NCBI GenBank assembly: GCA_034667725.1 | Contig: JAXDQS010000010.1 | Span: 160,001 to 224,000, forward strand | Length of the DNA stretch: 64,000 bases | Direction: 5' to 3' | Origin: Thermoplasmata archaeon | Lineage (GTDB): Archaea > Thermoplasmatota > E2 > JACPAO01 > JAHFTW01 | Shown: piece by piece, positions 981 to 24,436 of the stretch | Layout of the letters: each line of letters opens with the position of its first letter | How positions within the stretch are numbered: the first letter of the stretch is position 1 | Notes under the pieces: generated by a model | Told to the model about the DNA's origin: nothing | What the model saw: the letters and a program-made list of their open reading frames with translations, nothing else | Database searches by the model: none | Position numbers and translations under genes: made by a program

Positions 981-3509
981 GTGGTTCCCTTGGCCGCGCC
1001 TCGGTCGCTCAAAAATCGTGTTCCTTTTTTCCTCCAATGGATGGCCCTGGCGTTCCTTGTTTCGGTTACGGTTTTGGCGCTCGCGACCCCTTCGGACGCC
1101 GCTCAGGCGGCGGTCCAGGACGGGAACATCCGAATGGGGGTCATGGACGACGGCCTCCTAGGAATCCAGGAATCGCCCGCTTACTACAGCGCCTCCACCA
1201 GCCCTTTCACCCTCCTGCGCGACACCACCACCAACAATGAAGTCAACGCCAATTTTGGCGCCCGAGCCAACTCGTGGGGCGTCGCCTACGACAGCGCCAC
1301 GGCGACGCCGCGGGTCGGTTGCACCCAGAGTGGGTATGCGTTCGGCTGTTCAGGCCCCCCGTCGGTGCCTTTCAGCGGGACGAAAGCCTTGACCCCGACT
1401 GGCTCCTGCGGGGTGCCGACGGCCGCCTGCGAAGTCAAGGTCTGCAACGACTTCTTCAGCGAGCTCCGGGTGTGCCATGAGTTCCGGTCTAATCCACACC
1501 CTGATATCATCGAGGTCACGGTCACCTTGGAGAGCCTTCGGCCTGCCGTGGACGGTCCGTTGCAGGACGTCCTTTACCAGCGCGCCATGACCTTCGCGCC
1601 GGAGCCTTACACTGGCGCCTACTCGAGCAGCAGGCCCATTGTCCCTTCCCATATGATTCTGGAAGGCGTGGCGCCGCCACCTCCGGCATTGGTGTGGTCG
1701 AGCAACCAGCCGGCAAGCACTCGCCCTCCGACGGGAGGCTACGCTCCAATGGGATCCTGCGCTACAGGAACCAGCTATACTCCAGCCGAACCCAGCGGCG
1801 GCTGGTATGCTGCCCCGATCGGTCCCTGCTTCCAGGGGGCGCTGTTCGAGTTGGACTTGGGGGATATCCTCAATGGTTCGCCAGCGACGTTCCAAATGTT
1901 CTATGGTGCTTCCACTTCCTTGGCCAACGCCAGGGCAGCCGTCGGCCCGGCCGGCGTCAACGCCGACTTCTGGGCCCTCGGCATGCATTCGTCCGACCCG
2001 TCGATGGGCACCCCCAACACCTTCATCTGGGCCTTCGGCGGCCTCTCGCCGCCCACAGCCTCCTTCACGACCTCCCGTCCCAGCCCGCCGCCCGCCGCCG
2101 TCTTCGCCGCCACCACCGTCTGCCTGGGCGACGCGATGACCTTCCTGGACACCAGCCTTCCGGCCGGTTGGCCCATCACGGCCTCGACCTGGGACTTCAA
2201 CGACCCCCCCGCCCCCGATGCGTCCTCCGGTCCACGCGGCTCCGTCACGCACACGTTCAGTGCGCCTGGCACGTACACGGTCCAACAAACGGTGCTGGAC
2301 GACGGCGGCCGCACGGCGACATCCTCCCAAGCCATCACCGTCCTCGACTGCGCCGTCCCCGTGCCCGACTTCGCTGGGGAGCCGTGCGAGGGCCGCGCCG
2401 CCGCTTTCACGGACCTCACGCCCGCCGGCCCACATCCCTACGTCTCGTCGCAATGGATTTGGGGCGACAGCGGCGCCACGGTCCTGAACCCCTACGCCAC
2501 CAGCACGACCCACACTTACGCCGCGTCCGGCACCGTCGCGGTGACGCTACGGGTGACGAACGCCATTGGCATCGTCGGGGCCACCACCAAGAACATCGAG
2601 GTCTGCCCCATCGTCTGCCCAGACATTGAGCAGCCCGGCGTCGTCGTGGCCTACGAAAGCCAGCGCCTGCTGCTGCCGCTGCGCGCCACGGATCCCAACG
2701 GTCCGGTGCTGACGTTCACCATGGGGCCGCTGGCCGCGGGCACCTTCACGGCTGCGCCTGCCTCCGGGGCGGGCCCGCTCGTGGTGGACGGCATGCTCGA
2801 CTGGACGCCGAACCCCGGAACGCTCGGCACAGTCACCGTGACGTTCGCCGCCAACGACACGTTCTGCACGGTCGTGCGCGACGTCACGTTCCGCGTCGGC
2901 CTGACGCCGCTTGCCGACTCCGACTTGGATGGCGTGCGCGACGCGGCCGACAACTGTCCCGACACCGTCAACCGTGGCCAGGAGGACGTCGACATGGACG
3001 GCATCGGCGACGTGTGCGCGCCCGCGCCCGTGGCCAAGCCGCCGCCTGCGCCGCCAGCGTTCCGCAACGGCACCGCGTTCGACAGGGACGGCGACGGCAT
3101 CCTCGACCGCGCGGACGGCTGCCCCGTGGACCAAGATCCGTTGCAGGAAGACTTCGACCGCGACGGCCGCGGCGACGCGTGCGACCTCGACGCGGACGGC
3201 GACGGCGTGGCCGAGCGCGGACAGTCGGGGGCCGCCACGGTCCACTTGGACAACTGTCCGCTGCGGCCGAACCCCGACCAGACGGACGGAGACCGCGACG
3301 GCCTGGGCGACGCCTGCGACGGCCCGCAAGAGGCCCTTACCCTGTCGCCTCCCACGGAGCCGCCCGCCGTCCGGTCCTCCTCCGAAAGGTACGGGCTCTG
3401 GATGTTCGCGCTGGCGTTCCTGGCCACGATGGGCGCATTAGGCCTCGCCGTGTTCTTCCTGGAGCGCCGCAACCGCAAGCACGAGCCGCCATTAGCCAAA
3501 AACGCCTAA
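981..3509 (+). CDS. Membrane-anchored surface protein with PKD domains, an Ig-like domain and thrombospondin type-3 (Ca-binding) repeats
   Basis: Signal peptide; PKD motifs (TWDFND...HTFSAPGTYTV, WIWGD...HTYAASGT); DxDxDG...DNCP repeats; C-terminal TM helix followed by RRNRK. Confidence 0.85.
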   Translation: MVPLAAPRSLKNRVPFFLQWMALAFLVSVTVLALATPSDAAQAAVQDGNIRMGVMDDGLLGIQESPAYYSASTSPFTLLRDTTTNNEVNANFGARANSWGVAYDSATATPRVGCTQSGYAFGCSGPPSVPFSGTKALTPTGSCGVPTAACEVKVCNDFFSELRVCHEFRSNPHPDIIEVTVTLESLRPAVDGPLQDVLYQRAMTFAPEPYTGAYSSSRPIVPSHMILEGVAPPPPALVWSSNQPASTRPPTGGYAPMGSCATGTSYTPAEPSGGWYAAPIGPCFQGALFELDLGDILNGSPATFQMFYGASTSLANARAAVGPAGVNADFWALGMHSSDPSMGTPNTFIWAFGGLSPPTASFTTSRPSPPPAAVFAATTVCLGDAMTFLDTSLPAGWPITASTWDFNDPPAPDASSGPRGSVTHTFSAPGTYTVQQTVLDDGGRTATSSQAITVLDCAVPVPDFAGEPCEGRAAAFTDLTPAGPHPYVSSQWIWGDSGATVLNPYATSTTHTYAASGTVAVTLRVTNAIGIVGATTKNIEVCPIVCPDIEQPGVVVAYESQRLLLPLRATDPNGPVLTFTMGPLAAGTFTAAPASGAGPLVVDGMLDWTPNPGTLGTVTVTFAANDTFCTVVRDVTFRVGLTPLADSDLDGVRDAADNCPDTVNRGQEDVDMDGIGDVCAPAPVAKPPPAPPAFRNGTAFDRDGDGILDRADGCPVDQDPLQEDFDRDGRGDACDLDADGDGVAERGQSGAATVHLDNCPLRPNPDQTDGDRDGLGDACDGPQEALTLSPPTEPPAVRSSSERYGLWMFALAFLATMGALGLAVFFLERRNRKHEPPLAKNA

Positions 3510-3702
3510 TAGGGACAAGCGGAAGCCGGGTCGTCGCGCCTGCTGCGACGGCTTTGCGTCCGTCGGCCCAGGCGGCGCTTTTGCGGCCGTGCCATCGCCT
3601 TGCATCGCGGGCCGTTGCGGGCGGTCGCCGCCTCCTGTCAACACAGAGTCTATGAACCCCGCCGGGCCTGCGCGCATCGCAGCCGGTGGCTGCTGTGGTT
3701 GC

Positions 3703-4119
3703 ATGCGTGGATTCCTTGTCCTTGTCCTAGCCAGCTTCTTGGTCGTTCCTGCAACGGCCTTGCCGCCGTTGACCCCGGTCTACGCCTACGGCGTGATCCA
3801 GGACAACGGCAACTTCCGCCTCGAGTGGAGCCCGCCTGCCACGGGCACCAACGGCATGACGGGCTACCGCGTCGAGCGCTACGTCGACGGCGTCCTGGAC
3901 GACGCCATCGTGGTCGCCGCCAGCGTGCACGCCTTCATCGACGACGTGGTCCCGACCGGCCTCGTCTACTACATCGTCTACTGGGCGAACGCCGAGGGCG
4001 TCTCCCCCGGCAGCAACCCCGTGGTCCGCGGCGAATACCCGCCCTGCAACTGGTTCTACGAGTCGCATGGGTTCCCTGGCTACGATCTGAAGCCGGAATG
4101 CCTCGTCCCACCGGTGTGA
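3703..4119 (+). CDS. Small secreted protein with an FN3-like domain and C-terminal Cys-loop motif (module A, gene 1)
   Basis: ATG 3703 gives MRGFLVLVLASFLVVPATA signal peptide; LEWSPP...GYRVERY...YYIVYWAN is FN3-like; ends YPPCNWF...PGYDLKPECLVPPV. Confidence 0.75.
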   Translation: MRGFLVLVLASFLVVPATALPPLTPVYAYGVIQDNGNFRLEWSPPATGTNGMTGYRVERYVDGVLDDAIVVAASVHAFIDDVVPTGLVYYIVYWANAEGVSPGSNPVVRGEYPPCNWFYESHGFPGYDLKPECLVPPV

Positions 4120-4122
4120 TCG

Positions 4123-5547
4123 ATGCGCGCGGGTGGGCTCCTCATTGTCCTGATGCTGTTGGCCTTGGCCGCGCCTGCGACCGACGCCGCCCCGCTGGGC
4201 GACCTGCAAGCCCGCCAGATGCGCACCCTCGACCTCGCCGTGGCCGCCGGCGCCGCCAAGGCCATCGCGGTCACGGCCCCCACCGACGGCCCCGTCTCGG
4301 GGCATGACCTGCGCATCACCGCGGAGCGCATCGTGGTCGTGACCAACGAGGCCTGGAGCAACGCGACCGTCTTCGGCGCCGCGCCCAAAACGGAGACCCG
4401 CTCGGCGCCGCCGCAGGCCCACGAGGACGCCACCGTCGCCACCACCCGCGTCGGCGAGCGCTTCGACCTCACCATCATCCCCGCCGACGGCCAGGTCCGC
4501 ATCGAGTCGCTGGGCGGCACCGCCCTCCCCTCCGCCGACCCCGTCGTGGAGGGGGGCCGCCACGTCGACGACCCCGACCAGCCGCCGCTGTGGGCGACGG
4601 TCCAGGCCACCGTGGTCTGGCTGCCCAGCGGCGACGTGTCGATCCGCCTCGAAGGCGACTTCTCGCTCTCGGTCTGGGACTGGGACCTCCGCGTCTCGGG
4701 CCGCGACCTCCGCAGCGGCTTCTTCCGCGACACCACCGTCGGGAGCCTCGGCGTCAGCCTGCTGTCGCAGGACTACTCCGCCGAGCAGTTCCTTCAGGTC
4801 GAGAACGGCACCCTCGACCTCCGCGTCCCCGACGGCCGCGCCGCCCGCGCCTACCTCGCCCGCCTCGGCGTCAGCACCGACGGCGCCCTCGCGCTCTCCG
4901 GCGCCAGCGGCGACCTGCCCACCGCGGACGGCGTGCGCGCCCTCGACGGCACCATCATCCTCGAAGGCGGTGTCGCCATCGAGCTCCGGACGCTCAAGGA
5001 CAGCCTGGTCGCCGACGTGCTCCAAGCCGATTCGCTGCGCGCGGACGGCGCCGTCGTGCCGCTCGCCTTCGCCTCCGACAACGGCCCCGCCTCCCCGCTC
5101 CCCTGGCTCCTCGGCCTGCTCGGCGCCGTGCCGCTGGTCGCCGCCGCCTGGCGCTCCGTCGTCCTGACGCGCGCCCGCCGCGTCACGCTGCTGCGGATGG
5201 ACGCCGGCCGCTACGAGCTGGCGCTGCACGGCAGCCGCGGCCTGCTGCGCTCGCGCCGCCACCGCATCTTCGCCCGCACCGTGCGCACCGTCGCGCTGCT
5301 GCGCCTCGGCCGCCCCGCGGAAGCCCGCCAGCTGCTCGACGAGCGCCACTGGCAAGGCCCGCTTGCGGCCTCCCGCCTCTACCTGCTTGCCCACGCCAGC
5401 GCCCTCGAGGGCGACCGCGACGCCGCCCAGCGCCACCTGCAGGCCGGCCTCGCGCTCGACCGCGGGCTGCGCGCCGACGCCGCCACCAACCCCACCCTCC
5501 GCCCCCTGCTTGAGCGCACCCTCGCCAGCCGGGAGGGCTACACGTGA
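4123..5547 (+). CDS. Single-pass membrane protein with extracellular domain and cytoplasmic TPR-like region (module A, gene 2)
   Basis: Signal peptide, about 300-aa beta-rich region, TM helix (LPWLLGLLGAVPLVAAAW), TPR-like helices (ALLRLGRPAEA, YLLAHASALEGDRDAA), ends EGYT. Confidence 0.8.
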   Translation: MRAGGLLIVLMLLALAAPATDAAPLGDLQARQMRTLDLAVAAGAAKAIAVTAPTDGPVSGHDLRITAERIVVVTNEAWSNATVFGAAPKTETRSAPPQAHEDATVATTRVGERFDLTIIPADGQVRIESLGGTALPSADPVVEGGRHVDDPDQPPLWATVQATVVWLPSGDVSIRLEGDFSLSVWDWDLRVSGRDLRSGFFRDTTVGSLGVSLLSQDYSAEQFLQVENGTLDLRVPDGRAARAYLARLGVSTDGALALSGASGDLPTADGVRALDGTIILEGGVAIELRTLKDSLVADVLQADSLRADGAVVPLAFASDNGPASPLPWLLGLLGAVPLVAAAWRSVVLTRARRVTLLRMDAGRYELALHGSRGLLRSRRHRIFARTVRTVALLRLGRPAEARQLLDERHWQGPLAASRLYLLAHASALEGDRDAAQRHLQAGLALDRGLRADAATNPTLRPLLERTLASREGYT

Positions 5548-5984
5548 ACGACGGCGACGCCACCCGGCAGGTCATCCTCAACCTCCTGCAGCAGCACCCA
5601 GGCCTGCACAAGAGCGAGCTGGCGCGCGCCCTCGGCCTCGGCTGGGGCACCATCTCCTACCACCTCCAAGTGCTGTGCCAGACCGGCGCGGTCCAGCAGA
5701 TGCGCCGCGGCCGCCGCCTCCGGCTGTTCCCCGGCGGCATGGACGAGAAGCAGATGCGCCTGCTGTGCGCGATGCGGCAGGACGTCCAGAACGACATCCT
5801 GAAGGCGCTGACCTTCTCGCCCGGCGCCGCCGCCGAGTCGCTGGCCGACGAGCTGGGCCTGAGCCGCCGCCTCATCCGCCGCCACCTTGCCAGCCTGGAG
5901 GAGGACGGCATCGTGGACGCCCTGCACGTGCCCCGCACCGACGTCACCAACCTGCGGCAAGGCCTGGAGCCCTACCACCGCTAG
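5544..5984 (+). CDS. Double winged-helix-turn-helix transcriptional regulator, COG3398-like (module A, gene 3)
   Basis: HPGLHKSELARALGLGWGTISYHLQVL and a second HTH (PGAAAESLADELGLSRRLIRRHLASL). GTGA overlap with the upstream gene. Confidence 0.85.
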   Translation: MNDGDATRQVILNLLQQHPGLHKSELARALGLGWGTISYHLQVLCQTGAVQQMRRGRRLRLFPGGMDEKQMRLLCAMRQDVQNDILKALTFSPGAAAESLADELGLSRRLIRRHLASLEEDGIVDALHVPRTDVTNLRQGLEPYHR

Positions 5985-6044
5985 CTTGCCGCTTTCAAGA
6001 ATCCGCCCGGAAACCCTAACCCTGCGGCTTCTGGGTGGGCTCCC

Positions 6045-6482
6045 ATGGCACGATCTGCCGTCCTTGCAAGCCTGCTCATGATCGCCCTGCTGGGCACCCC
6101 CGTCCACGCCGGCGCCCCCTACCAGTCCGGCGAAGGCTGGTGCGGCGGCCAAGCCCCCATCGCGTCCGCCTGCCAGGCCAAGCCCTACACGCTGCCATCG
6201 TCCATCACCGTGGACATCGACGCCCACCTGCTGTGCCTGCTCGTCTCAGGCTGCGAGGACGGCGAGGTCGTGGTCACGCTGCACGGCGCCACCGAGACCG
6301 GCACCGTCGAGAAGAGCTGCTCCTACTCCTTCAGCGCCAACAGCTGCACCGGCATCCAGAGGACCGGCGCCATGTACGTCGGCCAGGACATCGTGGTCAC
6401 CGGGACCGCGACCCTGCGCTGCGGCTCGACGGTCTGCGGCAGCCTGCCCGCCGCGGCCGAGTGGTCGGTCGCCGTCTACTGA
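6045..6482 (+). CDS. Small secreted Cys-rich hypothetical protein
   Basis: Signal peptide MARSAVLASLLMIALLGTPVHA; 8 Cys in 145 aa. Confidence 0.7.
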   Translation: MARSAVLASLLMIALLGTPVHAGAPYQSGEGWCGGQAPIASACQAKPYTLPSSITVDIDAHLLCLLVSGCEDGEVVVTLHGATETGTVEKSCSYSFSANSCTGIQRTGAMYVGQDIVVTGTATLRCGSTVCGSLPAAAEWSVAVY

Positions 6483-6626
6483 GCCGTCCCGCGGCCCTCT
6501 TCCTTCACCCCAACCCCTTTATCAAGCACGCCCGTGCCGCACCTGGAACGTCGCCCCGCCGCGTGGGCCGGCAACCGCCCCAGGCACCCGTTCGCCTGAG
6601 GCCCATTGGACGCGGCACGTGATAGT

Positions 6627-8141
6627 ATGCCGCAATCCAAGGAGAAGTCCCCCAAGCTCAAGCTCAGCGCCCAGGCCCAGAAGGTCGTCGACCTCAAGGC
6701 CACCTTCGCGGACCTGAAGCTCAGTCCCACCACCATCGCGGCCCTCGACAAGCTCGGCTTCGCCCATCCCACCCCCATCCAGGAAAAGACCATCCCGCTT
6801 CTCCTGGAGGGCCACGACGTCATCGGGCAGGCGCGCACCGGCACCGGCAAGACCGCCTCGTTCGGCCTGCCCATCATCGAGACGTACGACCCGGCGGCCA
6901 AGCACGTTCAGGCGCTGATCCTGGCCCCGACGCGCGAGCTGGCGCTGCAAATCCACGACGAGATGATCCGCTACGCCGCCAACCGCGAGTTCCGCATCCT
7001 CGCCATCTACGGCGGCACCGGCTACGAGGTCCAGGACAAATCCCTCAAGCAGGGCGTCCACGTCGTCGTCGGCACCCCCGGCCGCATCATGGACCACATG
7101 GAGCGCGGCACCCTCGACCTGCGCTCCACCAAGCTCCTGGTGCTGGACGAGGCCGACCGGATGCTCGACATGGGCTTCATCGACGACGTCGAGAAGATCC
7201 TCAAGTCGATGCCGGGCAAGCACCACCGCCAGACCCTGCTGTTCTCGGCCACCATGCCCGAGGAGATCAAGGGCCTCACCCGCCGCTTCATGGTGCAGCC
7301 GCAGTTCGTCCGCGTCAGCGCCGACGAGCTCACGGTCCCCGAGATCGACCAGGTCTACTACCCCGTCGGCCGCCGCAACAAGCACTGGGCCCTCACCCGC
7401 GTCCTCGACAACGAGCCCGAGCAGGACCTGGTGCTGATCTTCTGCGCCACCAAGATGATGTGCGACCGCCTCAAGGAGGACCTCAACCGCTGGGGCTACA
7501 ACGCCGAGGCCATCCACGGCGACCTTCCCCAAAGCAAGCGCGAACGCGTCCTTGCGGACTTCGACGCCGGCAAGGTCAAAATCCTCATCGCCACCGACGT
7601 CGCCGCCCGCGGCCTCGACATCGACCGCATCACCCACGTCGTCAACTTCGACCTCCCCGAGACCGAGCCCGAGGTCTACGTCCACCGCATCGGCCGCACC
7701 GGCCGCGCCGGCCGCAAGGGCAAGAGCATCTCGTTCGTCAGCCTCGACGACAAGCCGCTCTTGAAGCGCATCGAGATGCTGATCGGCCGCGAGATCAAGG
7801 AGGCCACTCCGCCGGCCGGCGCCGACGGCAAGCCCGACCGGGTCGAGCGCAAGACCGACTGGGACGAGCTGGCCGACAAGTACGGCAACGTCCACCTGCG
7901 CGTCAACGCCGGCCGCGACGACGGCCTCACGCCCTACCTCCTGCACAAGCTGGTCGCGGAGTCCACCCGGCTCCCCGACCACGCCATCCGCGACATCATC
8001 GTCCACCGCCACGAGGCCGGCTTCGCCGTGCCCAAGGACGCAGCACTCTCGGCCCGCCAAGGGCTGCAGAGCATCAAGCTGGACGGCTACAAGCTCGACG
8101 CGGAGTTCGAGTCGCGCGAGACCACTGTCCGTACGGCCTGA
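6627..8141 (+). CDS. DEAD-box RNA helicase (DeaD/CshA-like) with a C-terminal DbpA-like RNA-binding domain
   Basis: Q motif, ARTGTGKT, PTRELA, TPGR, DEAD, SAT, ARGLD and HRIGRTGRAG motifs. Confidence 0.95.
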   Translation: MPQSKEKSPKLKLSAQAQKVVDLKATFADLKLSPTTIAALDKLGFAHPTPIQEKTIPLLLEGHDVIGQARTGTGKTASFGLPIIETYDPAAKHVQALILAPTRELALQIHDEMIRYAANREFRILAIYGGTGYEVQDKSLKQGVHVVVGTPGRIMDHMERGTLDLRSTKLLVLDEADRMLDMGFIDDVEKILKSMPGKHHRQTLLFSATMPEEIKGLTRRFMVQPQFVRVSADELTVPEIDQVYYPVGRRNKHWALTRVLDNEPEQDLVLIFCATKMMCDRLKEDLNRWGYNAEAIHGDLPQSKRERVLADFDAGKVKILIATDVAARGLDIDRITHVVNFDLPETEPEVYVHRIGRTGRAGRKGKSISFVSLDDKPLLKRIEMLIGREIKEATPPAGADGKPDRVERKTDWDELADKYGNVHLRVNAGRDDGLTPYLLHKLVAESTRLPDHAIRDIIVHRHEAGFAVPKDAALSARQGLQSIKLDGYKLDAEFESRETTVRTA

Positions 8142-8166
8142 GCTTCGCAAAAACTGCCGTAGGCGG

Positions 8167-8445
8167 TCAAATCATCCTAGCCAGATAATTCTCGCCTTGC
8201 TCCACCTCGGCGTCGCAGTGGCGCTTGTACTTCATGGCCACGGTGACAAGGGTTGCGGTCAGAACGGCATATGCGACCATCAGTTCTGATTTTTGGATTA
8301 ACAACGCGTCCGAGCCGGCGAGCGCGATTCCAATCAGGGCAAGTGAGAGTGCCGATCCGAGAACGGCAAGCGCGACAACCGCTCGTAGCGCCACCCGCGC
8401 GACAAAGGCCCGAATCTTCAGTTGGTCAAGCTCACTTCGGTCCAT
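8167..8445 (-). CDS. Small two-TM hypothetical protein in a lower-GC segment
   Basis: 92-aa ORF with two hydrophobic stretches; codon usage differs from neighbours. Confidence 0.55.
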   Translation of the reverse strand: MDRSELDQLKIRAFVARVALRAVVALAVLGSALSLALIGIALAGSDALLIQKSELMVAYAVLTATLVTVAMKYKRHCDAEVEQGENYLARMI

Positions 8446-8506
8446 GAATCGGTCAGCGGGGCCGCCGGCATAACGATATCGAGTTAGTAAAACGAACCGG
8501 CCAAGC

Positions 8507-9583
8507 TCACACTAGCACGCACCCGTGCCACGCGATCTCGTCGCCCGGCTGGAACGCCATGCCCGTGATGCCGAGCGGCGCGGACGCGCCGTTGACGTCG
8601 TAGCACCAGTCCGACAGGGCGCCGTAGCCGTCGATGGACTCGACGCCGAAGCCGAACGAGTCGTTGAAGCTGAACTCGACGGCGCGGCCCGTCTGGGTCC
8701 AGGCCACCAGCACGTCGTGGACGTTGGCGTGCGGCGGGTGGGCGATGGGCTTGCCGTCATAGTCGGGCGCCGACAGGAAGGCGTCGATGTCGAGCCAGAC
8801 CTCGTCGTCCAGCGGCGCTTTCTGGGGGATGGCGGCCGTGAACTCGGCCTGCACGCGGGCGGAGGCGAGGCGGACCGCGACCACGTCGCGGACGGCCGTG
8901 GCCTTGCCGTCGTCGGCGAGCACCCGGAGCGGCGTCTGCCCGTAGTCGAGCGGCACGGTGACGCTCCATGGGCCGGCGGGCACGTCGGCCGTCGTGGCGT
9001 TCGTCACCGTCAGGCGGACGGCGCGGTCCACCGTGCCCGCGAGCACCAGGGTCGCGCTGCGGGTCGGCGCCGGCGCCGTGACGGTGAGCGTGAGGGGGCC
9101 CGTCGCCGGCTTCAGGGGCGCGGCGGCGGTCGGGGTGGCGGTCGCGGTGCCGGAGGCGGCGGTCGGGCTCGTGGAGCTGCCCTCCGAATCCTGGTCCAGC
9201 GGCGTGTAGGTCCAGGACACGGTGTCGCCGGCGTGGACCTGGACATCGTCCATGCCCGTCATGCTGGCGACCCCGTTGAGCGCGAGCGCCCAGTGGCCTT
9301 CGGCGCCTTGCGAGCAGCCGGGGGTCTTGGGCACGCCGTCGATGGCGTCGAGGCAGTGGCCGAAGCTGAACTCCTGCATGTCCACGCGGACCCCGGAGTG
9401 GTGGGACCAAGCCAGCAGCTGGTGGTAGGCGGTCGCGGCCTCGGCCGCGGGCACGGTGGCGTCCACGTCGGCGTGGGGCGCGGGGAAGTCGAGGAGGATG
9501 CGGGTCGTGGGGCCGTCGTCGGCGGCGCAGCCGGCAAGGAGGGCGGCGACGAGCAAGGCGATGGCGAGATGGGTCTGGGTCAT
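8507..9583 (-). CDS. Lipoprotein with two DUF4430 (transcobalamin-like C-terminal) domains
   Basis: Lipobox LLAGC. Two copies of FG..(V/L)..IDG...W...(L/V)NG..(A/S)..G.....GD.(V/I).W. ATGA overlap with the upstream gene. Confidence 0.75.
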   Translation of the reverse strand: MTQTHLAIALLVAALLAGCAADDGPTTRILLDFPAPHADVDATVPAAEAATAYHQLLAWSHHSGVRVDMQEFSFGHCLDAIDGVPKTPGCSQGAEGHWALALNGVASMTGMDDVQVHAGDTVSWTYTPLDQDSEGSSTSPTAASGTATATPTAAAPLKPATGPLTLTVTAPAPTRSATLVLAGTVDRAVRLTVTNATTADVPAGPWSVTVPLDYGQTPLRVLADDGKATAVRDVVAVRLASARVQAEFTAAIPQKAPLDDEVWLDIDAFLSAPDYDGKPIAHPPHANVHDVLVAWTQTGRAVEFSFNDSFGFGVESIDGYGALSDWCYDVNGASAPLGITGMAFQPGDEIAWHGCVLV

Positions 9584-10512
9584 GGGCGGCACCGGGCGAG
9601 GAGGGCGGAATAGGCGAGCAGCAAGAGGGGAAGGAGGACGGCTGGGCCCGGCGCGGCGCGCGGCGTGGCCGCGGCGGCCGGCGGGCCGTCGAGGGCGAGC
9701 GCCAGCGGGGGCGAGGCGCGGCCGGCGCCTTCGCTGCGCAGCTCCAGGGTGTGGTTGCCGGGGAGGGCGGGCACTTCGAGGCGCCACGTCGGGCCGGTGG
9801 CGCGCGCCTGCCATGCGCCGTCGTCGAGGCGGAACGCGAGCGCCGTGGCGTTGCCGTCGGCGTGCCGGCCTTCGACCTGCCAGGCGTCGGCGCGCGTGGC
9901 CGCGGCCGTCGGAGGCGTGAGCGGGAGGGCGCGCCACGCCGCGACCGTGGCTGGCGCGGGCGGCACCGTGGCCTGGAGACTGGCGGTGGCGTCGAAGCGC
10001 TCGCCGCCGTCGGCGGCGTTGGCGGCGATGACGTGGTTGCCGTTGGCGGCCAGGACCGCCAGCCACGCCTGGGCGGGCTGCGGCTCGTGGGCCAGGTCCG
10101 GCGCGGTCCAGGCGACCTGCCACTCGCGCCGCAGGGTTCCGTCGGCAGTGTAGGTGGCTTCACGCGCGTCGGGGAGGCGGACCAGGTCCTCCATGCCGGC
10201 GGGGACCGCGAGGCGGCCGGCGCCGACGGCCAGGTCGAAGCCGCCTTGAGGCTGCGGCGCGGGCATGGCGGCCGGGCCGCCGCCGACGCGGACAGTCAGG
10301 AGGTAGCTGGCGCCGGGCAGCCAGCCGTCGGCGGGCAGGCCTTCGAGCGTGGCCGTGGCTTCGGTCGCCACCAGGGGCGGGACGGTGTGGCAGGCCAGGC
10401 AGGTGAGGCCGTTTTTGCCCGAGAAGCCGTCGGAGCCGCCGAAGTTGGCGGACGCGGTCCAGGCGACGGCCAGGAAGAGGGCGGCTGCGGCGAGGCGGGC
10501 GGCGGACGACAC
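9580..10512 (-). CDS. Secreted Reeler/choice-of-anchor V-like protein with CxxCH motif and C-terminal TM anchor
   Basis: Signal peptide, GLTCLACH, LEGLP..W.PG.SY.LTV, GGFDL, WTAP, AANGN; C-terminal APGP followed by a hydrophobic helix. Confidence 0.7.
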   Translation of the reverse strand: MSSAARLAAAALFLAVAWTASANFGGSDGFSGKNGLTCLACHTVPPLVATEATATLEGLPADGWLPGASYLLTVRVGGGPAAMPAPQPQGGFDLAVGAGRLAVPAGMEDLVRLPDAREATYTADGTLRREWQVAWTAPDLAHEPQPAQAWLAVLAANGNHVIAANAADGGERFDATASLQATVPPAPATVAAWRALPLTPPTAAATRADAWQVEGRHADGNATALAFRLDDGAWQARATGPTWRLEVPALPGNHTLELRSEGAGRASPPLALALDGPPAAAATPRAAPGPAVLLPLLLLAYSALLARCRP

Positions 10513-10592
10513 TTCAACCCCGGTTGTTGGGATTCAACCAGGATGGAACGGCCAAAAGGCTTGCTTCAACAGGTGTTGAGGGAGCCGCCACC

Positions 10593-12140
10593 ATGATATC
10601 CACGCCAAGGGTCGCGCGCGCGATGCCGAAGCCTGCCGCCGCGCCCGCCCCGACGGTCGAGGACGCCCTTGCCGTCCTGCCCGACCTCGACGCCGACCAG
10701 GTGCGCAAGGTCGTGGCGCTCGGCAAGAAGGCATGGCCGTACCGCTTCCCCGCGGAGCGCGACCTGGCCGCGCTGCGCGCCCGCCTGGAGGCGGCGCACC
10801 AGCCGGGCCAGAAGGGCGACGCGCCCGGGGCCAAGCGCTACAAGGTCGCGGGCCGGCTGCGCGCCAAGCGCGGCAGCGGCGGCATCGCGTTCCTTGATTT
10901 GGAGGGCCAGGACGGCAAGATCCAGTGCATCCTCGACAAGGGCGAGCTGGGGGACGCGGCGTTCGACGCGGCGCTGCACCTGCTGAACGAGGGCGACTGG
11001 GTCGGAGTCGCCGGCTACGGGATGCGCTCGAAGCGCGGCGAGCCCTCGATCGGCGCGGAGAAGGTCACGCTGCTTGCCAAGGCGCTGGTGTCGTTCCCGG
11101 ACCTGGGGCAGGCGGAGGCGCCGGAGCTGCGCTATGGCCGTCCGTATGTCGGCCTGATGCAAGGCCCGGCGGCGCGGCGGCCGTTCGTGCAGCGCGCCCG
11201 CATCACCCAAGTGGTCCGCCAAGTGCTGGAGAAGGCCGGCTTCCTGGAGGCGCACATCCCGGTCTTGGAGAAGGTGTACGGCGGCGCCAACGCCCAGCCG
11301 TTCGTCACCCACTCGAACGCGAAGGACATGCCGATGTACCTGCGCATCAGCCACGAACTGGCCCTGAAGAAGCTCCTCGTGGGCGGCCTGGAGCGGGTCC
11401 ACCACATCGGGCCGGCGTTCCGCAACGAGGACATCGACACCACCCACAACCCCGAGTTCACGCTGCTGGAGTGCTACGCCGCCTACTGGGACTACACAGA
11501 CATGATGCGGCTCACCGAGAAGATGTTCCAGGCCGCGGTGAAGGCCGTGAACGGCGGCTCGCTGGTGCTGCAGCGCCCGGGCAAGGAGCCGCTGGACTTC
11601 GGCACGTTCCACGTCGTCACGATGAAGGACGCGATCCGCTCGCACGGCGGCCCCGACCCCGACACCGTGTCGGACGAGGAAATCCAGAAAATCCTCGCGG
11701 AGGCCAACGTCCACATCCGCGGCGGCTACTCGCGCGGCCTCGGGGTCGCCAAGCTGTTCGAGGTCTACGCCGAGCCCCTCCTGGTGCAGCCGACCTTCGT
11801 CATCGACCACCCGCGCGAGACGACCCCGCTGTGCAAGGCGCACCGCAAGGACCCCAGCCTGGTCGAGCGGTTCGAGCTGTTCATCGCCGGCCGCGAGCAC
11901 GCCAACTCCTACTCCGAGCTCAACGACCCCATCCTGCAAGCGCGGCTGTTCGCCGAGCAGGAGGCCCGGCGCAAGGGCGGCGACGACGAGGCCCCGCCGA
12001 CCGACCAAGACTTCATCCAAGCCCTGAAGCATGGCATGCCCCCCGCGGGCGGCCTCGGCGTGGGCATCGACCGCATGGTGATGACCCTCCTCGACCTCGA
12101 CTCGATCAAGCAAGTGCTGCCGTTCCCGCAGATGAAGTGA
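10593..12140 (+). CDS. lysS: Lysyl-tRNA synthetase, class II
   Basis: OB-fold (VAGRL...FLDL...GKIQ), YGGANAQPFVTH, YLRISHEL.LKKLLVGG, FRNEDID.THNPEFT, ERFELFI.GRE.ANSYSELNDP, GMPPAGGLGVGIDR. Confidence 0.95.
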   Translation: MISTPRVARAMPKPAAAPAPTVEDALAVLPDLDADQVRKVVALGKKAWPYRFPAERDLAALRARLEAAHQPGQKGDAPGAKRYKVAGRLRAKRGSGGIAFLDLEGQDGKIQCILDKGELGDAAFDAALHLLNEGDWVGVAGYGMRSKRGEPSIGAEKVTLLAKALVSFPDLGQAEAPELRYGRPYVGLMQGPAARRPFVQRARITQVVRQVLEKAGFLEAHIPVLEKVYGGANAQPFVTHSNAKDMPMYLRISHELALKKLLVGGLERVHHIGPAFRNEDIDTTHNPEFTLLECYAAYWDYTDMMRLTEKMFQAAVKAVNGGSLVLQRPGKEPLDFGTFHVVTMKDAIRSHGGPDPDTVSDEEIQKILAEANVHIRGGYSRGLGVAKLFEVYAEPLLVQPTFVIDHPRETTPLCKAHRKDPSLVERFELFIAGREHANSYSELNDPILQARLFAEQEARRKGGDDEAPPTDQDFIQALKHGMPPAGGLGVGIDRMVMTLLDLDSIKQVLPFPQMK

Positions 12141-12143
12141 CCC

Positions 12144-12614
12144 CTAGTCCAAGCCCAGGCGCTCGTCGTCCTCCAAGTGGCGGTCGCGCCGCGTGGTCCC
12201 GACGATGTGCTCCGGCGGCAAGAGCGGACGGTAGCGCGGCCGCGTGACCCCCACCTTCTCGACCACGCCGTCCTCGATCATCCGGGTCAGATGGGCGCGC
12301 ACCACCTTGCGGGTGAAGCCGATGTCGTCGCTGATGCGGTAGACGCCCGACATCGGGTGCGCCAGCAAGGCCTCCAGCACGCGCGCCGCGTCCTCGTCAT
12401 GCAGCGCCCGCAGCCACGGCCGGTCGTGCGCCGGCACCTCGCCGGGGAACAGCTCGTGGCTCCAGCCGCGGTCCTCGACGTGCAACAGCCGCTGGCGCGT
12501 CAGCACGCGGACGTGGTGCTGGATGGTCGCCCAGCGCACGCCCAGCAGCGAGCACAGCTCGTTCTTGGTGATGCCGGGGCGGCTGGCCACCGCCGCCCGG
12601 ATGCGGGCCCGCAT
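12144..12614 (-). CDS. Double winged-HTH transcriptional regulator, COG3398-like (module B, gene 3)
   Basis: C-terminal part of ORF 12144..13547: RPGITKNELCSLLGVRWATIQHHVRVL...LFPG...HPMSGVYRISDDIGFTRKVVRAHL. Paralog of 5544..5984. Start codon uncertain. Confidence 0.85.
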   Translation of the reverse strand: MRARIRAAVASRPGITKNELCSLLGVRWATIQHHVRVLTRQRLLHVEDRGWSHELFPGEVPAHDRPWLRALHDEDAARVLEALLAHPMSGVYRISDDIGFTRKVVRAHLTRMIEDGVVEKVGVTRPRYRPLLPPEHIVGTTRRDRHLEDDERLGLD

Positions 12615-12649
12615 CGCGTCACCGTCGCGCAGGGCGATGAAGAGCGGCG

Positions 12650-14053
12650 CTAAACGTATCCCTCCACGAGCGCCGCGCGGCGCGTCTCCGCCTTCCGAAG
12701 GGCCTCCGCCACCAGGCCCCGCAGCGCGGGGTCGGCCGCCGCATCGCGGGCGTAGCCGGGGCTGACCGCGATGCAGTTGGCCAACGATTCGAGCGCCTCG
12801 CCGCGCCGGCCTTGCAGCGAGCGCAGGTGGGCCAAGAGGTAGTCGCGGGTGTCGCGCCGCCGCGCCCAGCGACGCGCCGGGCCGAGGCGGCGCTCCGCGC
12901 GCGCCAACTGGCCCGAGCGCAGCAGCGCCACGGCCTCGGCGACGCGGGCGTCGCGGCCCGCCCACGGCAGCCACGCCAGCCGCGACGCGGTGGCGGCGGC
13001 TTGCGGGTAGTCGCGCGCGTCCATCCGGCGCCGCAGCAGGACGCGCTGGTGGCGGTAGGCGGTGGCCGCCAAGGCGACGACGGCCAGGCCGGCAAGCCAC
13101 CACGGCCACAGCGCGCCGAGGCCGGGGCCGTCGGCGGCCTCCAGGCCGGCGCCCTCGATGGCGGCGACGTCCCCCAGCTCGAGGCGCACCGCCGCCGACT
13201 GGGCGCGCAAGGCCCCCGCCAGCGGGGCGCGCAGCACGACGGTGGCGGGCGCCACCGCCTCGCCGGCGACCACCAGCCGCGCCGAATGCAGCGAGACGCT
13301 GCCGGCGGCCATCGCGAGGGACGCGTCCTCCAAGAGCGCCGTGGTGGCGTTGGCGAGCACCAAGGTCAGTTCGGCGCCGCGCAGGTCGGCGTACGCCTCG
13401 ACCTGGACGTTCTCCATGACGGGCACGCCTGGCGCGACCGTGGGCGTGCTGTGCTGCCCGGTCTCCGCCGTGACGGTCCCGTTGGCGCTCGCGAAGGTGG
13501 CGTCGGCGCCCCAGACGACCAGCCGGAAGTCGCCGCGCACCGACCACTCCCTGCCGCCCAGCGCCGCCAACGCCCCCCGCGCCTCATACGTGGTCTGCGG
13601 CCGGACCGTGCTGGCGTGCGGCTTGAAGGTGGTGGTGCCCGCCGTGGCGGCCTCCACCGCCAGCCCGGCCAGCTGGGCCTCGGCGGAGCGGGGCGCAAGC
13701 GGAATCAGGACGAGGCGGCAGTCCTTGGTCCCATTGACCAGCACGCGGACGTCGCGCAGGTCGCTGGGTTCGGTGGTCACGTCGGCGTCCAGCGGCGCAA
13801 CACCCACGGCCGAGTACGCGACCTGGCTGCGGTCCACCTCGACGTGGGCGCTCGCCGCCGTCCCCACCAGGCGGACGCTGCCGCACGCCTGCTCCTGATG
13901 GGACCAGGCGCGCAACGGGCCCGCGAGGTCCGCGTGCCCCGCGACCTCGACGCGGGTGGCGGTGCCTGTGACGGCGACGCCCGCGTGGACGGAAGGAGAA
14001 AGAAGGAGCAGCAGGAAAAGGGCCAGCGCCCAGGCCCAGCCCGGCCGGTGCAT
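12650..14053 (-). CDS. Single-pass membrane protein with extracellular domain and cytoplasmic TPR-like region (module B, gene 2)
   Basis: Signal peptide, GDFRLVVWGAD (compare GDFSLSVWDWD in 4123..5547), TM helix, ALLRSG/YLLAH TPR-like helices, ends EGYV. Confidence 0.8.
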   Translation of the reverse strand: MHRPGWAWALALFLLLLLSPSVHAGVAVTGTATRVEVAGHADLAGPLRAWSHQEQACGSVRLVGTAASAHVEVDRSQVAYSAVGVAPLDADVTTEPSDLRDVRVLVNGTKDCRLVLIPLAPRSAEAQLAGLAVEAATAGTTTFKPHASTVRPQTTYEARGALAALGGREWSVRGDFRLVVWGADATFASANGTVTAETGQHSTPTVAPGVPVMENVQVEAYADLRGAELTLVLANATTALLEDASLAMAAGSVSLHSARLVVAGEAVAPATVVLRAPLAGALRAQSAAVRLELGDVAAIEGAGLEAADGPGLGALWPWWLAGLAVVALAATAYRHQRVLLRRRMDARDYPQAAATASRLAWLPWAGRDARVAEAVALLRSGQLARAERRLGPARRWARRRDTRDYLLAHLRSLQGRRGEALESLANCIAVSPGYARDAAADPALRGLVAEALRKAETRRAALVEGYV

Positions 14054-14095
14054 CAGCCGTGGGACAATGAGGCCGGATATCGCCCTTCTGGGCGA

Positions 14096-14312
14096 CTAAG
14101 GGCCGATGGGCGGCAACGGCAGCAGGCAGGTGGGGTCGAGGGTGTAGGTGGGTGGGTTGGTGTCGTCGTCGTGCATGAACACCTGGCAGTGCGGCCAGTG
14201 GTCGAGCGGGCCTTCATCCTCCCCCGGCGGGTCGGCGGGCTCGTCCGCGACGCAGTTCGGAATCCAGGCCAAGGCGATCGTCAACAGGGCTGTCGCTAGT
14301 CTCGTGGGGCAT
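14096..14312 (-). CDS. Small secreted Cys-loop peptide (module B, gene 1), possibly frameshifted near its start
   Basis: Track ORF 14096..14284 ends WPHCQVF...PTYTLDPTCLLPLPP. An ATG at 14312 is out of frame by one base at a C4 run; removing one C gives MPTRLATALLTIALAWIPNCVA, a signal-peptide-like start. Confidence 0.6.
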
Positions 14313-14584
14313 CACTTCCGGCCGCCGAAGCCGACGGCCGGAGTCCCATCCCGCAGCAGGCTTATCGCCCGATTCGCAAGAACTGGGGTCGTTCTTTGCT
14401 AAAAATGGGAACGTTCCGAAAGCAACGCCCGGCCGCGACGCCCATGCACGACCAAAAGCGCGCATCCCGCGGTTTTGCTCCAATGACCCGGGCTTGCGTT
14501 GGGCGGCGGACCAAGGCCATGGTGCAAGCGAAGGTCTCGGGCTGTCCCAAAAGCATCATGACCTAGGGCGGCGGAGGTTTCCCA

Positions 14585-15469
14585 ATGAGCCCCGGGCGCG
14601 CCTGCATCGGGCTTGGCCTTGCTGGCCAAGGCGTGGCGCTGCTGTCCGGCGTCGTGCCCCACGAGGACCCGCTGGTGGGCGCCGGCCTCTTGGCCTTCGG
14701 CCTCGCCTTGGTGGCCACGGGGACCATGCCCGCCTTGCCGGCGCTGCGGCGGTGGCACCTGCTGGCCTGCGGCGGCGCCGCCCTCGCCGCCGCCGGCGCC
14801 GCGTGGGCACTCTCGGGCCGGGCCCCCTCGGGGCCGCTGCTGCTGCTCGGGCTCCTGGGCACGACGCTCGTGGCCGCCGCCGCGCTCCACGGACGGTCCT
14901 TGCAGGCGGGCGGACGGGCTTGGCCCGCCCGGGACCTTGCCGCCGGCGCCGCCGTCGCCCTCGGGGCGCCGCTTGCGGTCTGGCTGGCGCAGGCCGCCTT
15001 CAAGCGGGTGGCCGCCACGACGCCGCTGGAGGCGTTCGAGATGCTGTTCCTGGTGGCGCCGGTCCACTGGATGCTCGGCCAGGCCGGGTTCGCCACGACC
15101 ATGGACGGCCAGACCCTGACCATGCAGGGCACGCACGGCCTCCTGACGGTCCAGGTGGGCGCGGCGTGCTCGGGGCTGCAGGCGATGGCGTTGTTCATGG
15201 GGATGCTGGCGCTGTTTGCCGCCACGCAGCGCCCGCCGGGCCGCCGCCTTGCCGTCTGGACCGTCGTGGGCTTGGCCGGCGTCTACGTCGCCAACGTGCT
15301 GCGGCTGTTCGTCGTGATCCTGGCCGGCCACCAATGGGGCGCTGGGGCCTTGCAGGAGGTCCACGCCAACGCGGGCTGGGCGTTCTTCGTGGCCTGGAGC
15401 CTGCTGTTCGCCGTGTGGCTGCGGCGCGACCTTCAACGCATGCGGGCCGCGTCCCCGCCCATGGCCTGA
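14585..15469 (+). CDS. Archaeosortase/exosortase family protein
   Basis: Multi-TM protein with the Cys/Arg/His triad: VGAACSGLQAM, ANVLRL, EVHANAGW. Confidence 0.9.
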   Translation: MSPGRACIGLGLAGQGVALLSGVVPHEDPLVGAGLLAFGLALVATGTMPALPALRRWHLLACGGAALAAAGAAWALSGRAPSGPLLLLGLLGTTLVAAAALHGRSLQAGGRAWPARDLAAGAAVALGAPLAVWLAQAAFKRVAATTPLEAFEMLFLVAPVHWMLGQAGFATTMDGQTLTMQGTHGLLTVQVGAACSGLQAMALFMGMLALFAATQRPPGRRLAVWTVVGLAGVYVANVLRLFVVILAGHQWGAGALQEVHANAGWAFFVAWSLLFAVWLRRDLQRMRAASPPMA

Positions 15470-17088
15470 CGCAGCACGACGTGGAACACCTGGGCTTGGC
15501 CGTTGTCGAAGACGAGGTGGAGGTCGTCGGAGCGCGCGAACTTGCCGTACGCCTCGGCGCCGACAGGCTCCCGCAGCGGCCCGAACTCCATGAAGCCGGA
15601 CGCCTCCACGTCGTGGCGCAGCACGAACACCTCGAAGCCGGCCAGGTAGGGCAGGGTGGTCGTCGGGTCGGTGCTGTACCAGAAGTCCCGCAGCAGCGAC
15701 TCGCTGGGACGGAACGCGATGGCGTCATGGAAGCCGTAGCGCCGGAACAGCACGCTCGACAGCTCCAGGGACGAGTACACGACGGCGTCGTGGCGCTCGT
15801 GGCCGTCCATCCATTCGAGCGCGCCCCGGTCGCCTTCCGAGTAGTTCGGGGTGGCGGTGGCGACCAGCAGCGGCGTCGCCACCACGAGCCCCGCCAGCAC
15901 GGCGCCGGCGGTCCGCAGCGCAACGCCACGCCGGACGAAGCGCGCCAGCAGGTAGAGCGACGCCAGCAGTCCCAACGGCGCGAGGTAGATGACGCTCCGG
16001 TTGAGGAAGCTCACGCCGAGGCTGCCCACCAGCACGGCGCTGAACAGGCCGACGCCGACCGCCCACTGGGCGAAGGCGCCGTGCGCCGGCTGCACGGGCC
16101 GGCCGGCCCACCAGTCGCGCAACGCCAGCAGCACGAGCCAGCCAAGCGGGGCGAACACGGCCGCGCTGCCGGCGTACAAAAGCGCCGACCGCCACGGCTC
16201 GCGGTTGAGGTGGCTGGCGTAGTCGCCGCCCGTGTCGGGGCCCAGCACGGGCGCCGCCGTCATCTGGGCCGACAGCTCCAGGTGGCTCGTCAAGGCGCCG
16301 TTCAAGAGCAGCATCCCCACCAGCGCCAGCGGCACCGCGATGCTGAACGCGAGCGGGACGAGCGGCGTGAACGGCGTGCGCCGCAGCCGGGCCAGCAGGT
16401 GCAGGGCCAAGAAGCCCGCGAACAGGAGGATGACGTAGTACGACACAGTGTAGTACCAGAAGGGCAGGACCGCGATGGGCACCAGGGCAAGCGGGATGGC
16501 GCGCCGGTCCCCCAGGAGGCTGCGCCGCAGCAGCAGGTGCAGCACGATCGCCACCGCCACCAGCGACGTGCTGGGCATGAGGACGCGCAGGTCGAGCACG
16601 AACGGCGCGCTCACCACCGGCAGCGCCAGCGGCGCCAGCGCGTGCCACGGGGCCTTGGCGGGCCGCATCAAGAGGTCGGCGGTCGCGAACGTGAGGCCCA
16701 GCAGGGCGAAGGCCCCGAACGGGACGCGGGCCGTCTCCTCGGGGGCCGCCCCGGCCAGGCTGCTCAAGGTGGCAAGCAAGGTGGGCTGCAGCGGGATGCC
16801 GTTCCAGAAGTGCCATGTCGTGGTCGCGTAGAAGCTGGGGCGGCCGAGGCCCATCTCCTCCTGGAACGGGCCGAGCGTGTCCGCGAACGACGAACGCGCG
16901 AACACGTCCTCGTTCACCGGGACGCGGCCGTCGTCGAGGGCCGCCTGGGCCAAGAGGTCATGCGAGAACAGCCACTCGTTGGGCGCGTAGGGCGACGCCC
17001 GCGTGCCGGCGTTCGCGACCGCGAAGAACAGCGTGCAGCCGGCCAAGGCCAAGAGCGCGAGCCGCCAGCCGACGGGAAGGCCGCGCAC
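15433..17088 (-). CDS. Polytopic membrane protein, DUF2206/GT-C-like (glycosylation-locus type)
   Basis: About 12 hydrophobic segments plus a C-terminal soluble domain with GALEWM... and VFDNG motifs. Confidence 0.6.
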   Translation of the reverse strand: MRGLPVGWRLALLALAGCTLFFAVANAGTRASPYAPNEWLFSHDLLAQAALDDGRVPVNEDVFARSSFADTLGPFQEEMGLGRPSFYATTTWHFWNGIPLQPTLLATLSSLAGAAPEETARVPFGAFALLGLTFATADLLMRPAKAPWHALAPLALPVVSAPFVLDLRVLMPSTSLVAVAIVLHLLLRRSLLGDRRAIPLALVPIAVLPFWYYTVSYYVILLFAGFLALHLLARLRRTPFTPLVPLAFSIAVPLALVGMLLLNGALTSHLELSAQMTAAPVLGPDTGGDYASHLNREPWRSALLYAGSAAVFAPLGWLVLLALRDWWAGRPVQPAHGAFAQWAVGVGLFSAVLVGSLGVSFLNRSVIYLAPLGLLASLYLLARFVRRGVALRTAGAVLAGLVVATPLLVATATPNYSEGDRGALEWMDGHERHDAVVYSSLELSSVLFRRYGFHDAIAFRPSESLLRDFWYSTDPTTTLPYLAGFEVFVLRHDVEASGFMEFGPLREPVGAEAYGKFARSDDLHLVFDNGQAQVFHVVLRQAMGGDAARMR

Positions 17089-19225: not shown

Positions 19226-19642
19226 ATGAAGCTACTGACCATTTTGCGCTACGCCCTGCTTGCCATCGATGTAGTCGCCACGGTTTTGATTTCCGGCGGG
19301 CATTTCCACTCCATGGGATACTATCCGCCGATGGAGCAGGCGCGCACGGGGCTAGGCGTCTTGGCGGTCGGCGGCCTTGTCGGCTGGCCGCTTCTGCTGC
19401 CACACAGGGCGCCATGGAAAGGACTCGTCAAGCGATGGCAGGACCGCAAGGCCGCCAAGACCGAGAGGCAGCAGCAAGCCGCCGCGCAGAACAGCCTGCA
19501 CGGCCCCAACATCAACACGCAGTCCAGCAAGCGCGGGCTCTTCTGGAACAAGACCGTCTACAACATCTATCAGCTGCAAGCCCCAGGCCCGGGGTCGAGC
19601 CGGTCGCCGACGATCGACCCGGCGTCGCCTTCGGACGAGTAA
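19226..19642 (+). CDS. Hypothetical membrane protein
   Basis: ATG 19226 follows an AT-rich stretch; two hydrophobic segments; overlaps the convergent lipoprotein gene by about 70 nt. Confidence 0.5.
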   Translation: MKLLTILRYALLAIDVVATVLISGGHFHSMGYYPPMEQARTGLGVLAVGGLVGWPLLLPHRAPWKGLVKRWQDRKAAKTERQQQAAAQNSLHGPNINTQSSKRGLFWNKTVYNIYQLQAPGPGSSRSPTIDPASPSDE

Positions 19643-20658: not shown

Positions 20659-20665
20659 GGCATCC

Positions 20666-24434: not shown

Positions 24435-24436
24435 CC

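Follow-up and report, generated by a model that had tools for sequence, protein, structure and literature searches.

A candidate phosphorylation-free transmembrane signalling cassette with a secreted Cys-hairpin partner in Thermoplasmatota

Few known routes carry an outside signal to transcription in archaea, and a 64,000-nucleotide (nt) stretch of a Thermoplasmata archaeon (contig JAXDQS010000010.1, positions 160,001–224,000, from a soil metagenome; hereafter the window) raises the question of whether it encodes one. The original prediction for this DNA described a duplicated module of three genes: gene 1 encodes a secreted Cys-loop protein, gene 2 a membrane protein with a tetratricopeptide repeat (TPR) tail and gene 3 a regulator with two winged helix-turn-helix (wHTH) domains. 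According to our analysis, the module is probably a signalling cassette of this general design that works across the membrane without phosphorylation, and corresponds to a membrane-anchored transcription regulator split into separate parts. No description of this cassette was found in the literature searched, and nothing came up there for COG3398 or for transmembrane regulators of Thermoplasmatota.

Two cassettes and a large receptor family

The three-gene order is found twice, in opposite orientations, with all six open reading frames (ORFs) present as predicted:

3703–4119, plus strand: gene 1A, 138 amino acids (aa); signal peptide, FN3-like (fibronectin type III) domain (fn3 E 0.03), C-terminal Cys-x17-Cys hairpin
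4123–5547, plus strand: gene 2A, type I membrane protein of 474 aa; signal peptide, C-terminal G-Y-T
about 4192–5085, plus strand: all-β ectodomain of gene 2A
residues 329–347 of gene 2A: transmembrane helix
about 5161–5544, plus strand: three-repeat TPR tail of gene 2A (TPR folds, TM-score 0.6–0.7)
5544–5984, plus strand: gene 3A, double wHTH regulator of 146 aa (HVO_0163-like)
14096–14312, minus strand: gene 1B, short secreted Cys-hairpin protein without FN3, 62 aa from the in-frame TTG at 14284
12650–14053, minus strand: gene 2B, 467 aa, architecture as in gene 2A, C-terminal G-Y-V
12144–12614, minus strand: gene 3B, double wHTH regulator of 156 aa from the ATG at 12614; the frame is open upstream through 12653

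Every gene-2 motif quoted in the prediction occurs in both copies, namely GDFxLxxWxxD (residue 178 in gene 2A and 174 in gene 2B), VALLRxG (390 and 375), YLLAH (420 and 405), DAAxxPxLRxL (452 and 437) and EGY[TV] (471 and 464). The C-terminal Cys motif of gene 1 also stands, as a Cys hairpin in both copies; the FN3-like domain is confined to gene 1A, and gene 1B consists of little beyond the Cys loop. The DGDA part of the motif described as shared by the gene-3 copies precedes, in gene 3B, the first in-frame standard start (ATG 12614) and could be translated only from a non-standard one. The GTG start of gene 3A overlaps the stop of gene 2A by 4 nt and is preceded at 7 nt by GGAGG. Overlaps of this kind are enriched among subunits of complexes (PMC10666635). 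A programmed −1 frameshift joining genes 2 and 3 was considered and rejected: no slippery site was seen, and most junctions are ordinary 4-nt stop/start overlaps.

The two cassettes are real, but they are old paralogues and not a recent duplication, which is ruled out by the lack of a long high-identity DNA repeat. The genome (G000) contains eight receptor copies rather than two. In BLASTP, genes 2A and 2B align in the TPR part alone (38% over 88 aa), and genes 3A and 3B are 32% identical. The two ectodomains compared with each other score no better than shuffles (34 of 300 shuffles score as high), and the family ectodomain profile matches both (E 4e-53 and 4e-43).

A word-based search with gene 2A recovered a single relative, and profiles were needed to recover the family. 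Within the order, the ectodomain profile matches 34 of the 37 other genomes; in the remainder of the class it matches none of the 83 searched, and a sample of 250 genomes from across the phylum yielded matches in 18 that belong to other families. With 804 protein clusters at 50% identity and up to 16 matches per genome, the ectodomain defines, on sequence grounds, a large and expanded Thermoplasmatota family. Its members, where named in the source, are called 'hypothetical' or carry a TPR-driven label, and sequence searches of Pfam, NCBIfam and the PDB with 141 members found no family for the ectodomain. The nearest named relatives of a neighbouring helicase are metagenome-assembled genomes of Thermoplasmatota, one of them labelled 'Halobacteriales archaeon'.

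Gene 2 encodes a signal peptide, about 300 outer residues, one transmembrane helix and an Arg-rich inner flank. Because of this layout the receptor is predicted with high confidence to cross the membrane once and to carry its TPR domain inside the cell, as the original topology required. The ectodomain model is a confident all-β domain with very long strands (pLDDT 95). Fold searches with this model returned nothing clear (Foldseek, TM-score at most 0.13; Atlas, at most 0.31; VIA-align, best Z 5.8 over 91 residues, with the NAD kinase β domain), which does not in itself prove a new fold. The tail is modelled as about three TPRs and a capping helix (~130 aa), similar to generic TPR domains. Two receptors lack the TPR and still have gene 1 upstream (L048 and L076); at L048, the wHTH gene that follows the receptor has an N-terminal hydrophobic helix of its own. 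Another variant is a tandem doubled cassette in this genome (C5:149464–154383, L022), in which gene 1, gene 2, gene 1, gene 2 and one wHTH gene lie between a NusG-like gene and a YchF-like GTPase gene. Related genomes have a single cassette with a very different ectodomain at this locus.

Candidate secreted partner, regulator and the membrane boundary

Gene-1 products carry a signal peptide and a Cys-x(8–24)-Cys hairpin that contains a central Pro. In many of them an FN3 domain precedes the hairpin, and some have two hairpins. Residues C96, P106 and C114 of gene 1A are kept in at least 90% of 68 homologues. Because a narrow Cys-loop hidden Markov model overlooked divergent members, gene 1 was recognised by a rule instead, checked against a genome control. 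The main sample comprised 124 distinct loci from the order, 121 with room upstream and 104 with TPR-tailed receptors. A Cys-hairpin ORF ends just upstream of the receptor at 92 of the 121 loci, against 4.7% for other genes, and by eye most of the misses also have a Cys-hairpin gene. A second sample contained 46 loci, mostly from other, distant families, of which 41 were scored for gene-1 neighbours. Here, small secreted Cys proteins, several of them consisting of FN3 plus hairpin, are divergent from the receptor at 16 loci and co-directional with it at six (2% and 1% in controls). The pairing of gene 1 with the receptor therefore survives a change of orientation. Gene 1 also stays with the ectodomain where the TPR is missing or replaced (L033, L048, L060, L076 and fused forms). 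Complex prediction for gene 1A and the gene 2A ectodomain, run without controls, gave a score of 0.00 twice and is evidence neither way.

Downstream, a double wHTH gene follows 60 of the 104 TPR-tailed receptors, so that the neighbourhood counts bear out the expected co-occurrence of the three families in other genomes. Gene 3A matches PF24266 (HVO_0163-like double winged helix) at 55.9 bits for a cut-off of 31; gene 3B is marginal at 30.4 bits, just under that cut-off, and exceeds those of HTH_20 and HTH_24. A convergent ribbon-helix-helix (RHH) gene occurs at 15 of 45 loci without the double wHTH and at none of 58 with it. These small RHH genes, whose stops often overlap those of the wHTH-less receptors, are found at C12:62874 and C3:639449 in this genome and at L008, L011, L039, L057, L099 and others. 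Among the cassette proteins scanned, none had a Pfam match to a histidine kinase or receiver domain.

An input from the ectodomain to transcription, with genes 2 and 3 jointly doing the job of one fused protein, is best supported by about 20 proteins in which ectodomain, transmembrane helix and double wHTH form a single chain (L134, L135, P0090, 16 loci of the second sample and two in this genome, C3:135103 and C10:387784). Profiles built from fused-only and TPR-type-only ectodomains align with a probability of 99.3 (E 6e-21, 284 columns). Given these direct fusions of ectodomain and winged-helix domains, the cassette can be read as a transmembrane transcription regulator divided between separate genes. 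In a second type of fusion, the tail is a single wHTH-like domain (judged by eye, with no Pfam hit), and this type nests within the TPR clade with a support of 0.997. It points to a separate swap of the output part, although the deeper tree is poorly resolved. Side by side, the fused and split forms show how a one-component membrane regulator can become a multi-protein pathway.

Genome-wide, G000 encodes about 30 double-wHTH proteins, roughly 17 of which are fused behind a signal peptide, an ectodomain and a transmembrane helix (285–1093 aa); a few of the soluble ones come after a small membrane-protein gene. There is also a second candidate partner family of four paralogous secreted proteins (C1:267768, C1:363158, C4:14742 and C10:388593). 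They are about 250 aa long, 27–32% identical, have a C-terminal Cys, and each is encoded directly upstream of a membrane-anchored (fused-type) double-wHTH regulator.

In orthologous cassette pairs, identity usually rises at the membrane, from 29–55% in the ectodomain to 75–95% in the TPR and 96–98% in the wHTH, with flanking housekeeping genes at 90–99%. Locus L001, compared with copy A, shows 37% in gene 1, 55% in the ectodomain, 95% in the TPR and 98% in the wHTH; the corresponding values for L050/L124 are 34% (ectodomain), 88% and 98%. This inner/outer divergence resembles the polymorphism of ComQXP (PMC4408185), and co-component cassettes are likewise described as fast-evolving (10.1101/2022.04.08.487670).

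Proposed relay of a signal and competing explanations

We infer three contacts in such a cassette. Through its disulfide-closed hairpin, the secreted gene-1 protein would act outside the cell as the signal or co-receptor cognate to the gene-2 ectodomain; the TPR tail would control the separate double wHTH protein, either held at the membrane or handed on; and the regulator would bind a clade-specific site just upstream of the cassette promoter and of some secreted-protein genes, as the motifs in related clades suggest. Within this scheme, gene 1 could act as a diffusible signal or as an accessory subunit, and the signal could be relayed by sequestration or by proteolysis, with the C-terminal G-Y-x as a putative docking motif, possibly for the 20S proteasome. 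The predicted passage of an outside signal to transcription without phosphotransfer is upheld in part: the lack of an encoded kinase or receiver and the ectodomain–wHTH fusions speak for it, while the ligand and TPR–regulator binding are its presumed steps. The family supplies a ligand candidate, a receptor, a regulator and a candidate operator together, so each step is testable with small recombinant proteins. The literature searched yielded, for Thermoplasmatota, no protein or peptide signal that is matched by a cognate surface receptor.

Several observations weigh against a signalling cassette. No wHTH gene is adjacent at 44 of the 104 TPR loci, one receptor copy in this genome (C3:641324) has no gene 1, and the loci are kin, so that neighbour counts overstate their independence. 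The divergence pattern is no proof of specificity groups, because unrelated secreted proteins in L001 also diverge fast (48–69% identical) and one wHTH-less pair, L084/L088, shows the reverse gradient. Finally, gene 1B may be frameshifted. Its ATG at 14312 lies one base out of frame with the Cys-loop ORF, at a CCCC run; the gene may be frameshifted in this run or may start at TTG 14284, the first in-frame standard start, which clips the signal peptide. A Logan contig, possibly from the same sample as the source, has identical bases at gene 1B and shows the agreement of a second assembly only.

On the features tested, the cassette works like a co-component or a transmembrane one-component regulator and falls outside the VtrA/VtrC-like, RRNPP and two-component groups. 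Transmembrane transcription regulators (TTRs; PMC10269533) are also single-pass proteins in which an extracellular domain acts on a DNA-binding output without phosphorylation. They are defined by a transmembrane segment and a DNA-binding domain in one chain, which describes the fused paralogues C3:135103, C10:387784 and about 18 others, but not the window cassettes, where gene 2 ends in a TPR and a stop and gene 3 is separate. There, the TPR replaces the DNA-binding part on the receptor, the ectodomain lies outside Pfam and NCBIfam, and a dedicated secreted partner is present. The co-components VtrA/VtrC, ToxR/ToxS and TcpP/TcpH (10.1101/2022.04.08.487670) resemble the cassette in that the gene of a membrane regulator lies next to that of an extracytoplasmic partner (here at 92 of 121 loci), in their fast-evolving outer parts and in having no phosphorelay. 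Their DNA-binding domain resides on the membrane protein, the neighbouring gene encodes a lipocalin-like partner, and the VtrA/VtrC type is an obligate heterodimer that binds a small ligand. The window receptor is instead a type I protein with a cleavable N-terminal signal peptide and a TPR at its inner C-terminus, and the regulator has a gene of its own, the third, in an archaeal host. The putative secreted partner has a Cys hairpin, in some loci with an FN3-like domain as well. A secreted signal gene, a membrane receptor and a regulator are similarly combined in one operon, at a polymorphic locus, in ComQXPA of Bacillus and agr of Staphylococcus (PMC4408185, PMC3673130). Unlike them, the cassette has no histidine kinase, receiver domain or peptide-modifying enzyme, and its signal candidate is a small disulfide protein exported by an ordinary signal peptide.

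Rather doubtful, though the likeliest of the alternatives, is a reading of gene 1 as an obligate accessory subunit or a regulated output and not as a diffusible signal. It would stabilise or complete an ectodomain that senses an outside cue or envelope stress. ToxS, TcpH and VtrC do likewise for their membrane regulators, within cassettes that also evolve fast. Genes 1 and 2 nearly abut in many loci, many gene-1 products contain a folded FN3 domain and are large for a pheromone, and the four fused-type regulators described above have a different family of secreted partner upstream. Such a subunit sits less well with the many gene-1 products of just 60–70 aa, with receptors that lack gene 1, and with gene-1 copies divergent from the receptor, whose placement fits a separately regulated product better than a stoichiometric one.

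A narrower form of the signalling cassette, in which the relay is receptor-coupled proteolysis, is suggested by the receptor C-terminus and is on balance unlikely. Receptors clustered by ligand would dock the 20S proteasome through G-Y-x/HbYX tails, with the TPR as a substrate adaptor for the winged-helix regulator, which would be degraded or spared according to the signal. Tyr is penultimate in 66 of 130 TPR tails; across the proteins of this genome the share is 1.8%. The HbYX pattern, taken as [LVIMGAPFYW][FY]x (PMC3493965), fits 58 of the 104 TPR tails in the order versus 2.4% of all proteins, seven of the eight receptor copies of this genome, including the window tails G-Y-T and G-Y-V, and none of 18 fused forms. 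It fits 40 of 60 tails with an adjacent wHTH and 18 of 44 without; a matched-pair comparison of motif and wHTH presence comprised two pairs only. That 'EGY' is a mere ribosome-binding-site artefact was rejected: GGAGG explains Glu-Gly at overlaps, yet the Tyr persists without overlap, and the pattern is kept at 19 of 24 junctions where genes 2 and 3 do not overlap. The motif stands after a variable linker. Genes for 20S subunits are present in the genome, as is one for a PAN-like ATPase that ends in L-Y-A. Another gene in the window (46141–46896), which we take to resemble a PAC2/Pba-type proteasome-associated protein, ends in T-F-I.

A precedent is the archaeal 20S activator PbaB, which ends in Gly-Tyr-Leu and needs that tail (PMC3605417). 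Like the HbYX-bearing activators PAN, CDC48, AMA and PbaB (PMC3493965, PMC3605417), the receptor has a free C-terminal small/hydrophobic-Tyr-X after a variable linker. These activators are soluble oligomers that display several tails, and tail-dependent binding and gate opening of the 20S particle mark the group; the receptor, by comparison, is single-pass and its motif a candidate. No single-pass receptor with an HbYX-type tail was found in the literature searched. On the other side, the source of the pattern expects few proteins bearing it to bind (PMC3493965), PbaA has the motif without binding mature 20S, and the motif is missing from about half of the receptor tails. Other binding partners of a conserved free C-terminus are equally conceivable, among them the wHTH, a TPR groove or a tail-specific protease. 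The G-Y-x tail is, in our view, a candidate docking motif with the proteasome as one possible partner and the wHTH or a protease as others. Recruitment of the proteasome by the tail, if it occurs, would couple archaeal proteolysis directly to a receptor at the cell surface. A bolder version, which we regard as a long shot, has the receptors sense a self-made, strain-variable disulfide-hairpin protein, cluster, dock the 20S through HbYX-like tails and destroy or spare their own transcription factor, amounting to cell-to-cell signalling through ubiquitin-free proteolysis coupled to the receptor.

Improbable, too, is a structural or adhesive role for the gene-2 protein at the cell surface, with the TPR as an inner scaffold and the winged-helix gene as a mere local autoregulator that receives no signal from it. 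The tail-less forms with gene 1 and without TPR (L048, L076) would fit, as would the roughly 30 double-wHTH genes per genome in the lineage, many of them beside surface genes. Left unexplained would be the two kinds of ectodomain fusion to DNA-binding domains, the mutually exclusive wHTH and RHH neighbours and the highly conserved TPR next to a conserved wHTH.

The original comparison was with RRNPP quorum sensing (Rap, Rgg, NprR, PlcR, PrgX), in which a soluble receptor, mostly with an HTH of its own, binds a linear peptide taken back into the cell. The likeness lies in a TPR domain, an adjacent small secreted-protein gene and a regulator found together, but the analogy fails here, as the ~130-aa TPR region is the inner tail of a membrane receptor with a signal peptide and a transmembrane helix. 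Very improbable is a route in which the gene-1 product, after processing and re-import, binds the TPR inside the cell: the TPR has about three repeats only, a disulfide-closed loop would not be expected to last in the cytoplasm, and gene 1 tracks the ectodomain also at loci whose TPR is absent or exchanged for another part.

Upstream elements and surroundings

Each copy in the window is preceded by a short element that might be bound by its regulator:

3643–3659, plus strand: ACAGAGTCTA(T/A)GAACCC upstream of copy A; kept in the orthologous locus L001 (two loci only)
14371–14383, minus strand: operator-like GTTCTTGCGAATC of copy B, just upstream of a TATA-like box

The element of copy A is probably a promoter or operator region. 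Cassettes were grouped by regulator clade for motif comparison. The clade of the copy B regulator has a weaker TTCTTGCGAA-type word (at 14371–14383 in the window), and related words occur upstream of its other cassettes. Leave-one-out scores are 6–19, and the copy B element is the top site among 2144 upstream regions with its own site in training. A clearer motif, GGGA-N7-GACA, lies just upstream of a TATA-like box in all nine cassettes of one regulator clade. In this genome it occurs at the contig C1 cassette and upstream of three large secreted-protein genes, with site scores of 20–21 against a 99th percentile of 9. These three genes, at C3:244229 (518 aa), C3:246573 (515 aa) and C3:410725 (1506 aa), form a candidate regulon of the C1 cassette motif; two of the proteins carry D-x-D-x-D-G repeats. 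The operator pattern of the C1 paralogue, which is too strict, found two cassette sites only in five other genomes.

The surface-protein loci that adjoin both copies had been proposed as targets. Autoregulation of the cassette is likely and adjacent targets are unsupported, as the elements of copies A and B have no convincing match elsewhere in the genome and the surface neighbours recur in no fetched homologous locus. Upstream of copy A lies a PKD/TSP3-repeat surface protein (981–3509), the gene for which is absent from the closest orthologous locus, L001. Downstream of this copy is a Cys-rich secreted protein of 145 aa (6045–6482). Divergent from copy B, an exosortase/archaeosortase-family gene (PF09721) stands beside two multi-pass membrane proteins (14585–17850) and is not conserved beside homologous cassettes.

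Outside the window, the genome contains a dispersed intergenic repeat (e.g. C10:119150–119480) with the core TTCGGAAGATTCCCACAGA and a partly palindromic arm, TCTGTGGA. It is REP- or MITE-like, with 44 exact cores, often in tandem clusters 75–120 nt apart. Within the window, a segment with lower codon scores (19570–24796) is possibly acquired DNA and encodes a Gly/Cys-rich protein of 512–559 aa, a probable lipoprotein and a secreted protein of 585 aa.

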